Positions 2,429 through 8,072 of a stretch of DNA of 27,108 nt are shown in pieces. The DNA comes from Pyrinomonadaceae bacterium (GTDB lineage: Bacteria; Acidobacteriota; Blastocatellia; Pyrinomonadales; Pyrinomonadaceae): contig DASPKR010000545.1 in NCBI GenBank assembly GCA_035627975.1, positions 1-27,108 on the forward strand. The letters run 5' to 3'. Every line of letters begins with the position of its first letter. Positions within the stretch are counted from its first letter, which is position 1. The translations under genes and the position numbers were made by a program. The notes beneath the pieces were generated by a model. It did no database searches. It was not told where the DNA came from and saw only the letters and a program-made list of their open reading frames with translations.

Positions 2429-2460
2429 TTGACACTGTACTCGTCTCCAGGGTCTAGACT
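2429..2460 (+). promoter_or_regulatory. MerR-family (ZntR/CadR-like) promoter-operator P1: TTGACA-20 bp-TAGACT
   Basis: TTGACA 2429-2434, spacer CTGTACTCGTCTCCAGGGTC (20 nt, imperfect dyad CTG..CAG), TAGACT 2455-2460. RBS GGAGGG 2497-2502 precedes ATG 2508. Identical to P2 at 21 of 32 positions. Confidence 0.75.
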
Positions 2461-2507
2461 CTCATTCGTGGGCCGGCAATGCCCGAAAATTTCTACGGAG
2501 GGCGGTC

Positions 2508-4016
2508 ATGAGAATCTTAATTTTCGGCACTTGGCGCTTGCGCGTGCTCCTGCTGGCATCGGCAATTCTATACGCCGCCGCGCCGGAGGCGGCGGGGCAG
2601 CATCACCACGACCCACCCGTCGCGCGGCCGACCCCAACCGCGACACCGAAACCAACTCCCGCGCCGAAGCCCACGCCCGCGGAGGCCGTCGTAGCACCCG
2701 GCCGCCCCGCGCAGGCGACCACGGGCGGCGCGGCGCATGATCATAGTGCCCACGGCCAGGGTGCGGAGGTCACGAAATCCGCCGAGGGCGACAGCCCGCA
2801 CGGTGGGCACAGCGCCGGTGACGTGCCGATGACGAGCCGCGACGGCTCCGGCACTTCATGGCAGCCCGCCTCTACGCCCGCCTACATGCTCCACAAGCGC
2901 GCGGGGGGATGGCTGCTGATGCTGCACGGCGAGGCGAAAGTGGGCGTCAACTCGCAGGGCGGGCCGCGCGGCGTCACGAAGTTCGAGTCTCAGAACTGGC
3001 TCATGCCGATGGCGACGAGGGAGGCCGGGCGCGGCACGCTCGAACTGCGCGGCATGTTCAGCCTGGAACCTCTTACCTACTCGGGCGCCGGCTCGCCGCA
3101 ACTCTTCCAGTCGGGCGAGGTCTATCAGGGGCGGCCCATAGTGGACGCACAGCACCCGCACGACCTGCTGATGGAGCTGTCGGCGCGCTACACGCTGCCG
3201 GTCGGTGACCGCGGCTCCTGGTTCGCCTACTTCGGCTACCCGGGCGAGCCCGCCCTGGGTCCCGTCGCCTTCATGCACCGCGCGTCGGCCGCGGAGAACC
3301 CGTCGGCGCCGCTCGCACACCACCTTCAGGACTCGACGCACATCTCGTTCGGCGTCTTCACGACCGGCTTCACCTACCGCTGGCTGAAGGTGGAGGGCTC
3401 GGTCTTCAACGGGCGCGAGCCGGACGAAGAGAGGTACGGCTTCGAGGCCGGGCCTTGGAACTCGCGCTCGGTTCGCGTCTCCGTGGCGCCGAACAAGAAC
3501 TGGGCCCTCCAGTACTCCTATGGGTTCCTGAAGAACCCGGAGCTGCTGCACGAGGGCGACACTCACCGCCAGACGGCGTCAATTCAGTACAACAGGCCGC
3601 TCGCGCGCGGGAACTGGGCGACGAGCCTGGTCTGGGGGCGCAACCGCGAGGGCGACGAGGGCCACACCTTCAGGCTCAACAGCTACACGCTGGAATCCAC
3701 GCTCAACTTCGCGGGCAAGAACTACATCTACACGCGCCTGGAGCTGGTGGATAAGAAGGACATCCTCCGGCCCGAGGACCTGCCTAAGCTGGGGCTCGGG
3801 GAGCACGCGCACCCCCAGTTCCGCATAGGTGCCTACAGCTTCGGCTACGTGCGCGACCTCTACGCGGGCGACAAGTACTCCCTGGGCCTGGGCGGCGACA
3901 CGACCTTCTACTCGAAGCCGGAAGCCCTCGACGTGCTCTACGGCAAGAGCCCGGTCTCGTGGAAGGGGTTCCTCCGAATACGGCTCGGGGGCAGGGGCGC
4001 GGGCCACGGGATGTGA
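2508..4016 (+). CDS. Uncharacterised exported His-rich protein, probable outer-membrane beta-barrel
   Basis: 502 aa. Signal peptide ending AAG-Q; His clusters (QHHHD, AHDHSAHG, PHGGHS) around a Pro/Thr linker; SRDGSGTSWQP motif; then alternating amphipathic strands (WALQYSYG, TASIQYN, ATSLVWG, YTLESTLNF, YSFGYVRD). Barrel assignment is inferred from the pattern. Confidence 0.7.
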   Translation: MRILIFGTWRLRVLLLASAILYAAAPEAAGQHHHDPPVARPTPTATPKPTPAPKPTPAEAVVAPGRPAQATTGGAAHDHSAHGQGAEVTKSAEGDSPHGGHSAGDVPMTSRDGSGTSWQPASTPAYMLHKRAGGWLLMLHGEAKVGVNSQGGPRGVTKFESQNWLMPMATREAGRGTLELRGMFSLEPLTYSGAGSPQLFQSGEVYQGRPIVDAQHPHDLLMELSARYTLPVGDRGSWFAYFGYPGEPALGPVAFMHRASAAENPSAPLAHHLQDSTHISFGVFTTGFTYRWLKVEGSVFNGREPDEERYGFEAGPWNSRSVRVSVAPNKNWALQYSYGFLKNPELLHEGDTHRQTASIQYNRPLARGNWATSLVWGRNREGDEGHTFRLNSYTLESTLNFAGKNYIYTRLELVDKKDILRPEDLPKLGLGEHAHPQFRIGAYSFGYVRDLYAGDKYSLGLGGDTTFYSKPEALDVLYGKSPVSWKGFLRIRLGGRGAGHGM

Positions 4017-4064
4017 GGGGCGAAAATTCGCCCCGCAAATTTTTAAGGGCTCGAAAAATACCTG

Positions 4065-4096
4065 TTGACTCTGTAGTGCAGTACAGACTTTATACT
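4065..4096 (+). promoter_or_regulatory. MerR-family promoter-operator P2: TTGACT-20 bp-TATACT with dyad TCTGTA-gTGCAg-TACAGA
   Basis: TTGACT 4065-4070; perfect half-sites TCTGTA 4070-4075 and TACAGA 4082-4087; TATACT 4091-4096. An elongated spacer containing a dyad is the established MerR-activated promoter architecture, and merR lies directly downstream. Confidence 0.88.
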
Positions 4097-4183
4097 GGGA
4101 ACAGCTTGTGACGGGAGGTTGGCTAAGTGATGCGTGATACGAGCCGAGGCGCGAGGACGGTAGGCGAGGAGGAGGGGCGGCGG

Positions 4184-4636
4184 ATGCTCAAGATCGGCGA
4201 CGTCTCCAAACGGAGCGGCATCGGCGTCGAGGCGCTCAGGTTCTACGAGAAGAGCGGGCTGCTGGATAAGCCGTCGCGCACCTACAGCGGCTACCGCGTT
4301 TACGGCGAGGAGGTGCTGGAGCGGCTGGCCTTCATCAAGCGGGCGCAGGCGCTCGGCTTCTCCCTCGAGGAGATAAGGCAGATTGTGGACGACGCCCGGA
4401 GGGGTGAGAGCCCCTGCGAGGAGGTGCGCGAGATAGTCCGGCGCCGCATGGAGGAGCTCGACGAGCGGCTGCGCGAGCTGCACCGCTACAGGAAGGAACT
4501 CAAGCACACGCTAGAAGAGTGGGACAAGGTGGGGCGCGCGCCCGGCCACATCTGCGGGCTCATCGAGGGCTCGGAGGTCAGGCACGCCGCACACCACAAG
4601 GGGGAAGGGCTGAAGCGAGGGAAGCGCGGGGCCTGA
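4184..4636 (+). CDS. MerR-family heavy-metal-responsive transcriptional regulator
   Basis: 150 aa from ATG 4184 (strong SD GAGGAGGAGG upstream). wHTH MLKIGDVSKRSGIGVEALRFYEKSGLL...SGYRVY; LAFIKRAQALGFSLEEI; coiled-coil helix; C78, H122, C124 and a His-containing tail. Confidence 0.93.
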   Translation: MLKIGDVSKRSGIGVEALRFYEKSGLLDKPSRTYSGYRVYGEEVLERLAFIKRAQALGFSLEEIRQIVDDARRGESPCEEVREIVRRRMEELDERLRELHRYRKELKHTLEEWDKVGRAPGHICGLIEGSEVRHAAHHKGEGLKRGKRGA

Positions 4637-4687
4637 AAGCCCCGCGGCGGGCGGGGCTCCCCGGCGACGGGGGAAGGGAGTCCGAAG

Positions 4688-6982
4688 ATGCAAGCAACAT
4701 CTGCGACGAAAGAAGAGTCAGTTGACCCGGTGTGCGGGATGACGGTCGTCCCGGCGAAGGCCGCCGGGACGAGCGAGCGCGACGGCGTGCGTCACTACTT
4801 CTGCTCGCGAGGGTGTAAGGAGAGGTTCGACTCGGCGGGCGCCGGCGCCGCGCACGAGGGTCACGGTCACCGCGGCCACGTCATGAACGAGCCGGAGCAG
4901 GCCCGCCAAGCTCCGCGCGGCGGCGATGCCCGGGAGGCGCAGGCCGAGAGCTATCGCACGATGATGCGGAAGTTCTGGTTCGCGGCCGCCGTCGGCGCCC
5001 CGCTGCTACTGCTGATGTTCGCGGAGTTCGTCCCCGCGTGGCAGCACGCGCTGATGCCGTACCACCGCCTGATAGGTATGGCCTCCGCCGCGCTGACTCT
5101 GCCGGTGCTCGCGTGGTCGGGCCGGCAGTTCTTCGAGAGCGCGTGGAACGGCCTGCTCAACCACAACACGAACATGGACACGCTGGTCGCGCTCGGCACG
5201 GGCGCGGCCTGGGCATACTCGGCCGCGGCCGTCGCGGCGCCGGGCCTCTTTCCCGAAGGCACCGGGGGGATGTACTTCGAGGTGGCGGTCATCGTCATCG
5301 CGCTCATACTGCTCGGGCAGGCGCTCGAGATGAGGGCGAAGAGCCGTTCGAGCGCGGCGCTCAGGAAGCTGCTCGAGCTACAGGCGAAGACCGCGCGCGT
5401 CGTCCGCGGCGGCCGCGAGGTTGACGTGCCCATAGAGGAGGTGGTGGTCGGCGACACGGTGCTCGTCCGCCCCGGCGAGAAGGTGCCGGTGGACGGCGTC
5501 ATCATTGACGGCGAATCGGCGGTTGACGAGTCAATAGTGACCGGCGAGTCCGTCCCCGTGGATAAGAAGCGGGGCGACGGGGTCATCGGCTCGAGCGTCA
5601 ACAAGACGGGCGCGTTCACCTTCCGCGCGACGAAGGTCGGGGCCGATACGGCGCTCGCGCGCATTGTCGAGATGGTCGAGCGCGCGCAGAGCTCCAAGCC
5701 TCCGATTGGAAGACTGGTGGACAAGGTCAGCTCCTACTTCGTGCCGACGGTGATGATACTCGCCGTGCTGACGTTCCTGGCCTGGTTCAACTTCGGCCCC
5801 GAGCCCGCCGTCAACCACGCCGTCGTGACGATGGTCGCGGTGCTCGTCATCGCCTGCCCGTGCGCGCTCGGCCTGGCGACGCCCATCAGCTTGATGGTGG
5901 GCGTGGGGAAGGCGGCCGAGCACGGCGTGCTCATACGCAACGGCGAGGCGCTCGAGACCGCCTCCAGGCTCACGACCGTGGTGCTCGACAAGACGGGCAC
6001 TATTACGAAGGGCAAGCCGGAGCTGACCGACGTGCTGCCGCTCGAAGGCTTCGCGGAGGGCGAGCTGCTCCGCCTCGCCGCGACCGCGGATCGGCGGAGC
6101 GAGCACCCGCTCGCGGAGGCAATCGTGAGCGGCGCGCGCTCGCGCGGCGTCACGCTCGGCGAGCCGGAGGAGTTCGAGGCGGTGCCGGGCCACGGCGTCG
6201 AGGCGACGGTCGAAGGCATGAGCGTGGCCGTCGGCAACCGGAAGCTGATGGAGAGGGCGGGCGTTGACGCCTCGGCCTTCGAGCCGGCGGCGGCCGGGCT
6301 AGCAGACGAGGGCAAGACGCCGATGTTCGTCGCCGTCGGGGGCCAGCCGGCCGGCGTCGTGGGCGTCGCCGACACGCTAAAGGAAGACTCCGTGGAGGCC
6401 GTGCGCGCCCTGCGCTCGATGGGCATTGACGTGGTGATGATAACCGGCGACAACGAGCGCACGGCGCGCGCCATCGCGCGCCAGGCCGGCATCGAGCAGG
6501 TGCTGGCCGAGGTGCTGCCCGAGGAGAAAGCGCGGCAGGTCGAGAGGTTGCAGGCCGAAGGCCCGCCGCGCGGGGGGCGCAGGGCCCGCGGCGCGCGCCT
6601 CGTCGGGATGGTGGGAGACGGCATCAACGACGCGCCGGCGCTCGCGCAGGCCGACGTGGGCTTCGCCGTAGGGACGGGGACGGACGTCGCCATAGAGGCG
6701 GCTGACGTGACGCTCGTCGGCGGGAGTTTGAGGGGCGTCGTCACGGCGATAGAGGTCTCGCGGGCGACGCTGCGCAACATAAAGCAGAACCTGTTCGGCG
6801 CCTTCATCTACAACGTGCTCGGCATCCCCGTGGCGGCGGGCGTCTTCTACCCGCTCTTCGGGGTGCTGCTCTCGCCCATCATCGCGGGGGCGGCGATGGC
6901 CGCGTCTTCCATAACGGTCGTGACGAACGCGAACCGCCTTCGGCTCTTCGGGCCGCGGCGCGCGGGGGAGGTGAGAGGATGA
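4688..6982 (+). CDS. copA: Copper/silver-translocating P1B-1 ATPase with N-terminal YHS-type metal-binding domain
   Basis: 764 aa. DPVCGM...YFCSRGC (YHS/TRASH), His-rich linker, [38 protein letters not shown] (FIYNVLGIP) and MAASS. The CPC/YN/MxxSS set is the established Cu(I)/Ag(I) signature. Confidence 0.95.
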
Positions 6983-7356
6983 CTGCCACGCAGATAGTCG
7001 TGACGCTCTTAGGGTTCGGCCTCATCGGCTGGGTGGTCTGGTACTTCTGGCTCTGGGAGGGCGAGTCGGTCGAGGCGCGCGCCGGGGCCGGGGGCTTGCA
7101 GGTCGTTGACGTGACGGTGAAGGGCGGCTACCAGCCGGCCGCGATTGTCGCTAAAGCCGGCCGGCCGCTGCGACTGAACTTCACGCGCCGCGAGTCAACG
7201 CCGTGCGGCGAGGAGGTCGTGCTGCCTGGCTTCGGCCGACGCGCGCACCTGCCCGAGGGGGAGACGGTCGCCGTCGAGATGACGCCCGCGGAGCCGGGCG
7301 AGTACGAGTTCACGTGCGGCATGAACATGTATAAGGGGAAGATAATCGTCAGGTGA
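6979..7356 (+). CDS. cupA: Membrane-anchored cupredoxin-fold copper chaperone, CupA-like
   Basis: 125 aa. N-terminal TM helix; V.V.GGY.P; STPC; [17 protein letters not shown]. This matches the Cys plus CGMNM ligand set of streptococcal CupA as I recall it. The ATGA overlap with the copA stop implies translational coupling. Confidence 0.85.
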
Positions 7357-7425: not shown

Positions 7426-7445
7426 TAAGGGCTAATGGTTTCTTG

Positions 7446-7535
<90 letters not shown>

Positions 7536-7559
7536 TTCAGTTCTGAGTCGGCGCGCCAG

Positions 7560-8072
7560 ATGAGAAGACTGCTGTTGACAATCTCGGCCCTCGGCCTGCT
7601 GTGCGCCGTCGCGGCGGCGGCCGGCGACGCTTCGGCGCAGAGGCGCGGCAGGGCTCGTCCCCGCCCCGTCTGCGGCGACCCGACCGTGAGGTGCCGCACG
7701 ACCGCAGTGTTCCAGCCGCACCAGTTGCCCTTCGAGGTCTCGGCCAGCGACGTTATAGTCGAGAGCGAGCCGTTCTACATGGTCATACTCAAGAGCGTGC
7801 GCGACACGGCGCAGGACGGCACGGTCTTCGTCCCCGAGGACGAGCGCCTTGAGGCGCAGAAGCTCTTCCCGCGCCACAAGGTCTTCGCCTCGCGCGGCTA
7901 CGAGCCCGACGAGCTCTACTACGAGGGTACGGCCGAGGGGCAGCAGTTCATGGCCGTCTTCGCGGGACGCACGCGCGCCGAGGCCGGGCGCGTGCTCGCC
8001 AGGGTGCGGGCCACGGGCAAGTTCCCCGGCGCGAACCTGCGGCGCACGCGCACTGGCTTTAACGGCACGTAA
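7560..8072 (+). CDS. Secreted hypothetical protein, possible SPOR-like C-terminus
   Basis: 170 aa from ATG 7560. Signal peptide MRRLLLTISALGLLCAVAAAAGDASA-Q; Cys pair CGDPTVRC; C-terminal strand-helix-strand (FMAVFAGRTRAEAGRVLARVRATGKFPGANLRR) resembles SPOR, which is inference. Confidence 0.7.
   Translation: MRRLLLTISALGLLCAVAAAAGDASAQRRGRARPRPVCGDPTVRCRTTAVFQPHQLPFEVSASDVIVESEPFYMVILKSVRDTAQDGTVFVPEDERLEAQKLFPRHKVFASRGYEPDELYYEGTAEGQQFMAVFAGRTRAEAGRVLARVRATGKFPGANLRRTRTGFNGT

Follow-up and report, generated by a model that had tools for sequence, protein, structure and literature searches.

A 27,108-nucleotide stretch of DNA from the metagenome-assembled genome of a soil Pyrinomonadaceae bacterium (phylum Acidobacteriota; GenBank assembly GCA_035627975.1, contig DASPKR010000545.1, positions 1 to 27,108; hereafter the window) carries what we read, with a probability of roughly 55%, as a small Cu(I)/Ag(I) stress regulon, in which one MerR-type activator serves two promoters and an outer-membrane barrel gives copper an exit or a sink. 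The genes concerned encode a secreted barrel protein of 502 amino acids (aa), a MerR-family regulator, the P1B-1 ATPase CopA, and a homologue of the Cu(I) chaperone CupA; all features located here are on the forward strand. An earlier note, made from the sequence of the window alone, had proposed two related MerR-type promoters in front of these genes, and a metal-export pathway made up of CupA, CopA, and the 502-aa protein. The host genome assembly comprises 4.34 Mb and is 81% complete, and genome-wide counts given below refer to that incomplete assembly.

Both 32-mers proposed as promoters were found in place (P1, 2429-2460; P2, 4065-4096) and fit the consensus drawn for them. Each has TTGAC(A/T), a 20-bp spacer enclosing a CTGTA-N6-T(A/C)CAG dyad, and TA(G/T)ACT; P1 reads TTGACA, CTGTA-N6-TCCAG, and TAGACT, and P2 reads TTGACT, TCTGTA-N6-TACAGA, and TATACT. 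By direct reading, the two are identical at 21 of 32 positions. The spacers have the excess length (19 to 20 bp) of MerR-type metal-activated promoters, and the dyad operator, CTGTA(G)-N4-6-(C)TACAG, is conserved in relatives that have a merR orthologue. Only these two sites match the box pattern, whether in the window (0 matches in 100 shuffles) or across the 4.34-Mb genome; since the pattern was built from the same two sites, this uniqueness test is circular, and the independent support is comparative.

We fetched 55 loci encoding relatives of the 502-aa protein, of which the closest all come from Pyrinomonadaceae metagenome-assembled genomes. The closest subclade (~72 to 85% identity) retains the order barrel-merR-copA-cupA. 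The P1 box stands at the same place upstream of the 502-aa orthologue in 10 relatives, with a degenerate copy in an eleventh (L004); it typically reads TTGACTCTGTAG-N4-CTACAG-N4-TAGACT and is usually a better palindrome (CTGTAG-N4-CTACAG) than P1 of the window. Relatives with the P1 box also have a P2 box with TATACT upstream of merR, and both boxes are near-invariant blocks in intergenic DNA that is otherwise unalignable among relatives. With one mismatch allowed, the pattern was found in 19 of 61 genomes of the same family (1 to 3 sites each), and a reversed control pattern was found in none of them; the 19 include G315 and G328, which are flagged as unpublished, and no claim depends on these two alone. 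None of 40 phylum-wide barrel homologues has a MerR-like box upstream, so the box is a trait of the subclade and not of the barrel family. At L004:1955-2340, a degenerate P2-like box (TTGACCCAGTAG...) is followed not by merR-copA but by the gene of a small, free-standing YHS-domain protein.

The order of promoters, genes, and hairpin points to two transcription units. P1 lies 47 nucleotides (nt) from the ATG of the barrel gene (2508-4016), and this unit is closed by an intrinsic terminator-like hairpin with a T-run (4017-4044). P2 lies ~33 nt from the conserved ATG of the regulator gene (4130-4636; the open reading frame [ORF] opens with GTG at 4127, and ATG 4130 is the start kept in relatives), which is followed by copA (4688-6982) and cupA (6979-7356), the ATG of cupA overlapping the stop of copA (ATGA). 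The claim that P1 precedes the His-rich exported protein and P2 precedes merR-copA-cupA is thus borne out by relatives, in which gene order and boxes are kept. The further claim of one shared operator and one regulator agrees with the genome, where the gene downstream of P2 is the only MerR-family gene at an E value of ≤1e-5, which leaves its product as the one visible candidate for acting at both boxes.

In the 502-aa protein, a signal peptide is followed by a disordered His-rich tail (residues ~30 to 106; 9% His) and a predicted porin-type β-barrel (residues ~110 to 495). Scans against Pfam (E ≤0.01) and NCBIfam assigned it to no family, and a profile search of Protein Data Bank (PDB) sequences gave no match. 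A word-based search returned at least 7,998 clusters at 90% identity, all hypothetical where named, and an exhaustive search returned 3,308 clusters at 50% identity with E ≤1e-3, 722 of them at ≤1e-30. No paper on the barrel family, or on the PCYCGC proteins described below, was found in the literature, and with no Pfam or NCBIfam model either, the view that the family is undescribed is supported. Its conserved core spans residues ~105 to 495, and the N-terminal part is variable. Conserved motifs are QHPHD (215-219), FMHR (255-258), and HHxQDSTH (271-278), within which Q215-H216-P217-H218-D219, H257-R258, H271-H272, D275, and H278 are invariant or nearly so.

An AlphaFold2 model built from 100 homologues had a predicted local distance difference test (pLDDT) score of >90 over residues 110 to 495 and <50 over most of residues 30 to 106, and its core is an antiparallel barrel. 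Comparison with 48,161 chains (VIA-align) placed OprP first (Z 23.7, 305 residues aligned), with Omp32, Omp-Pst1, OmpF, PorB, and OmpU at Z 20 to 22 and OprC at Z 10.4; Foldseek concurred with a porin-type barrel (E 1e-10). PcoB was absent from the 50 matches listed in either fold search. Similarity to the trimeric-porin fold extends over the whole barrel, no Pfam porin model matches the protein, and one distant family member gave only a faint Porin_4 match. The earlier view of an outer-membrane-type protein is upheld by this high-confidence model, which predicts a porin-fold barrel, probably of 16 or 18 strands. Long connections lie on one side of the barrel (216-220, 244-282, 301-318, 418-436, and 470-482), and those on the other side are very short. 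Under the usual porin topology, the six conserved histidines would sit in two long loops, directed outward or folded into the lumen, and the tail would be periplasmic. Membership of three known groups was rejected: TonB-dependent copper receptors (OprC/NosA) by the lack of a Plug or TonB_dep_Rec match and the OprC score of only Z 10.4, PcoB/CopB by the lack of a PF05275 match at E ≤0.01, and CusC by the family and fold searches. The C terminus (3995-4016) has no aromatic last-strand residue and ends in a short Gly/His/Met tail (..RLGGRGAGHGM).

As the earlier note had it, the pump belongs to the P1B-1 Cu(I)/Ag(I) ATPases. It scored 618 bits against TIGR01511 (cut-off, 397) and did not pass the ZntA/CadA models, and its transmembrane motifs CPC, N-x6-YN-x4-P, and M-xx-SS-x5-N, which are the P1B-1 signatures of the published classification, can be read directly in the translation. 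Where an N-terminal HMA (CxxC) domain would be expected, the protein instead has a YHS domain (PF04945, E 2.9e-9) and a His-rich segment, a variant N terminus that is no bar to identification as CopA. No other P1B ATPase was found in the genome.

The 125-aa product of the third gene has a hydrophobic N terminus, read directly as a transmembrane helix, followed by a Cupredoxin_1 domain (PF13473, E 1e-22). Its alignment to pneumococcal CupA (4F2E/2MRY; E 4.8e-23) puts the PC and CGMNM ligands in register (C76 and C113-G-M-N-M), and the protein is a true CupA homologue, as had been claimed. Pneumococcal CupA is reportedly a chaperone of the cytoplasmic side (Fu and colleagues, 2013); CupA would therefore feed CopA and not bridge CopA to the barrel. 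The proposed CupA-CopA-barrel pathway would accordingly keep its parts, which lie under paired promoters, and lose that link. The statement that the usual envelope partners are absent is likewise true of the cluster and not strictly of the genome. The cluster contains no multicopper oxidase and the genome no PF05275 (PcoB/CopB) gene, but other contigs of this incomplete assembly hold one CzcA-family resistance-nodulation-division (RND) pump and one weak Cu-oxidase_3 match.

The regulator has MerR helix-turn-helix and dimerization domains (Pfam). Against the CueR model TIGR02044, it scored 91.8 bits (cut-off, 147.4) and so falls short of the CueR equivalog, and its best PDB relatives are Hg-MerR (4UA1, 5CRL) and PbrR (5GPE), ahead of CueR. 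Cys78, His122, and Cys124 (numbering from MLKIG) are the sole conserved candidate ligands in 14 orthologues. CueR uses S77, C112, and C120, that is, a Ser at the helix start and two loop Cys; the window regulator has Cys78 at that place, a single loop Cys (Cys124), and His122, and it also lacks the first loop Cys of MerR/PbrR/CadR. As judged from these residues, it may be a distinct metal-sensor subtype. A conserved 18-residue extension (MRExxRGxxVVxEEEGRR) precedes its helix-turn-helix domain.

Across the barrel family, sequence features of four kinds (tails, fusions, neighbors, and regulation) argue for an involvement with copper. The region before the barrel in 199 members has a median of 6.2% His and 6.7% Met with many MxxM/HxxM runs, and His plus Met reaches at least 12% in 130 of these 199 tails. 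Among 40 long members, the N-terminal fusions were cytochrome c (5 members), SCO1/SenC (3 members), YtkA (2 members), YHS, Cupredoxin_1, plastocyanin-like, and FixH domains; cytochrome c-barrel fusions also occur in AlphaFold DB clusters. CopA is encoded within 6 kb in 21 of 55 mostly Pyrinomonadaceae loci. At L062:2414-7049, a Cupredoxin_1-CopA(HMA)-CsoR-barrel operon holds the same three structural genes as the window under a different copper sensor. The barrel is 39% identical to that of the window, and its gene comes last, with a start that overlaps the csoR stop; from this position, CsoR, a second and unrelated sensor, is predicted to induce the barrel with copper.

In the more distant of the 55 loci, a PCYCGC lipoprotein with a His-rich linker is encoded downstream of the barrel gene (13 of 70 neighboring proteins scanned), small secreted Cys/Met/His-rich proteins and a redoxin are encoded upstream, and CusB/OEP and CopC/CopD occur once each. 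Elsewhere in the family, the barrel gene neighbors one for a P-type ATPase with an HMA domain or one for a cation diffusion facilitator transporter accompanied by an AraC regulator. When 301 Acidobacteriota genomes were sampled evenly, 55 (G024, which is unpublished, among them) encoded the family, in most cases with one member each. The neighbor survey of 40 phylum-wide loci found no recurrent family. The linkage of homologues to copA, cupredoxin, merR, and csoR genes that was expected from the window is thus far above chance but not family-wide. Copper-gene neighbors aside, the flanks of loci L013 to L049 encode small secreted families with no Pfam match (L024:4674-5195, L024:5281-5643, L013:4973-5623, and L035:3299-3787); one is Cys/Met/His-rich (SCCAM...CCCC...GDSCxM), and two share a conserved VFLI at the C terminus (..LRCCVFLI and ..SVFLI).

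As we picture the regulon, metal-loaded MerR would remodel both 20-bp-spacer promoters and so switch on P1 and P2. The P2 unit would supply MerR itself, the inner-membrane P1B-1 pump, and the membrane-anchored CupA-type Cu(I) chaperone; CupA would feed CopA, which would move Cu(I) into the periplasm. There the His-rich tail of the barrel could capture copper, and the His-lined pore could serve as a passive route or sink for it at the outer membrane. The barrel would then be analogous in function to PcoB/CopB while using a different scaffold, one that is OprP/OmpF-like. We infer the binding of MerR at P1, the binding of copper by the tail, the inducing metal, and above all the direction of transport. 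Because direction is as ambiguous here as it is for PcoB, we give efflux less weight than a general role as a copper-induced, copper-handling outer-membrane barrel.

Several points weigh against this regulon or against the export role of its barrel. Net efflux against an excess of copper outside the cell is beyond a passive pore, unless that pore is Cu(I)-selective. The placement of the conserved histidines was taken from the DSSP strand pattern alone, not from model coordinates. In the phylum-wide sample, copA lies within 8 kb of the barrel gene at only 5 of 40 loci; unrelated genes surround the remainder. This 12% linkage is still an enrichment over the ~1% that we estimate for chance adjacency, on the assumption that a 5-Mb genome has between one and a few copA genes, an enrichment computed over related, non-independent genomes. 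Since most phylum-wide members have unrelated neighbors and no MerR-like box, its members taken together may be porins of a more general kind. No NCBIfam metal-MerR model (ZntR, MerR, and CadR-PbrR included) reaches its cut-off with the regulator, and the Cys78 of this protein and the 20-bp spacers are traits of divalent-metal sensors. With MerR/PbrR-like residues and scores of this kind, the inducing metal cannot be read off the regulator, and Cu(I)/Ag(I) is argued from the pump and the chaperone. The locus was found in soil and air DNA metagenomes only and in no RNA run. Finally, isolated PcoB sensitized Escherichia coli to copper (PMC9210255).

That last result is also the starting point for a different account of the barrel, which we consider improbable although it deserves serious attention: an outer-membrane copper-binding sink or an uptake-for-sequestration channel, which in copper stress would admit copper to the periplasm or retain it on the tail and the His cluster, much as has been proposed for E. 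coli PcoB, and which in other lineages would feed periplasmic chaperones for cuproenzyme assembly. Besides sensitizing cells on its own, PcoB conducts Cu inward in vitro (PMC9210255). The fusions to SCO1, FixH, YtkA, and cytochrome c are biogenesis-type modules, and the redoxin/TlpA-like and Cys-rich secreted neighbors of distant members fit the same picture. Such a role sits poorly with two independent sensors of copper excess, MerR and (in L062) CsoR, both predicted to induce the barrel together with an exporter, and with a cluster that offers neither a multicopper oxidase nor a periplasmic binding partner, the genome having only the weak oxidase match. A somewhat slimmer chance goes to a porin for general or other solutes (OprP-like, for anions or small solutes), placed under copper control in the Pyrinomonadaceae subclade, for example for permeability remodeling, in which case the His/Met tails would be incidental or anchors. 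The top structural matches, phosphate and general diffusion porins, lean this way, as do the phylum-wide members, most of which are solitary among unrelated genes; the fold match is, however, uninformative on substrate, the tails are His/Met-enriched family-wide, the fused domains are overwhelmingly copper-handling, and six histidines in the barrel loops vary little or not at all.

The regulon might instead sense, and the barrel handle, another thiophilic metal (Zn, Cd, Pb, Hg, or Au), which we regard as quite unlikely. The regulator is what invites the idea, with Cys78 at the start of the dimer helix as in MerR/ZntR/PbrR, where CueR has Ser, and with Hg-MerR and PbrR as best PDB matches. We also count the 20-bp spacer in its favor, as the zntA promoter has a spacer of the same length, and the operator seems to resemble the CT-TAG type of CadR/PbrR/ZntR. 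Yet all P1B-1 signatures are present in the pump, which passes the model for copper ATPases and not those for ZntA/CadA; the third gene encodes a CupA Cu(I) chaperone with intact ligands; and the second loop Cys of MerR/PbrR/CadR is missing from the regulator.

Among described systems, PcoB/CopB (PF05275; E. coli pco and Caulobacter PcoB) resembles the barrel of the window in being an outer-membrane barrel behind a disordered, poorly conserved His/Met-rich N terminus, encoded in a copper-resistance locus. The window protein differs in its barrel of ~390 residues, which resembles the 16-strand trimeric porins OprP, Omp32, and OmpF, in having no PF05275 match, and in having no PcoA-type oxidase beside it. 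Its family is predicted to be under MerR or CsoR control, whereas PcoB/CopB is controlled by the CopRS/PcoRS two-component system. The direction of transport is unsettled for both barrels, that of PcoB being disputed between import (PMC9210255) and efflux (PMC12509749). General trimeric porins such as OprP give the best structural matches (Z 21 to 24 over ~280 to 305 aligned residues), but identity is 6 to 12%, and those porins have neither the His-rich conserved loops nor the putative metal-binding tail.

The E. coli CueR regulon has a similar design, in which one MerR sensor acts at two long-spacer dyad promoters (copA and cueO) that control a P1B-1 pump and an envelope copper-defense protein. 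Here, an outer-membrane barrel takes the place of the multicopper oxidase as second target, the spacers measure 20 bp rather than 19 bp, the regulator gene follows a promoter that its own product would activate, and the candidate ligands of that product (C78, H122, and C124) differ from those of CueR. The Streptococcus pneumoniae CupA-CopA pair shares a membrane-anchored, cupredoxin-fold Cu(I) chaperone (Cys...C-x-M-x-M) beside a P1B-1 pump. The window differs from it in the diderm host, in a CopA with a YHS domain and not a cupredoxin-type N-terminal domain (4F2F), and in its MerR-type regulator, the S. pneumoniae cop regulator being CopY.

The pump, the chaperone, and the promoter type are thus of known kinds; what is new is the conserved two-promoter MerR wiring, a predicted porin-fold barrel from an unnamed family as its second target, and the candidate regulator subtype. 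To our knowledge, the exit of copper from the periplasm of diderms after P1B pumps is well understood only for Cus and partly for Pco. Acidobacteria rank among the most numerous bacteria in soil, and we know of almost no study of their metal biology. With three independent kinds of evidence (two different copper sensors, domain fusions, and tail chemistry) pointing the same way, the large, unannotated barrel family is a concrete, testable candidate for the missing outer-membrane step. A much broader proposal, which we offer tentatively and think unlikely to hold in full, is that Acidobacteriota and other soil phyla rely on this family (>3,300 clusters at 50% identity) as their principal conduit for copper at the outer membrane. 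Its members would combine His-lined loops with an exchangeable periplasmic copper head (His/Met tail, SCO1, cupredoxin, YHS, or cytochrome c), would take over from CopA at the outer membrane in diderms that have no PcoB and do not turn to Cus for that purpose, and in Pyrinomonadaceae would be tied to a new Cys-His-Cys MerR subtype. Were the barrel family to carry out the missing step, the counting of copper-resistance genes in soil metagenomes would change. The conserved operator pair provides an experimental handle, as two promoters and one regulator could be placed in a surrogate host.

Upstream of the cluster, a TonB-dependent receptor with an N-terminal CarboxypepD_reg domain (205-2373) ends 55 nt before P1; it adjoins the barrel gene in no relative and was ruled out as a component of the system. 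Directly downstream of cupA lies tRNA-Ser(GGA) (7446-7535), and beyond it come a gene for a glyoxalase-fold protein and dnaX, neither of them related to the metal cluster. An ORF of 209 codons (7443-8072), encoding a small secreted product with no Pfam match, overlaps the tRNA gene, so its true start is probably near 7561.

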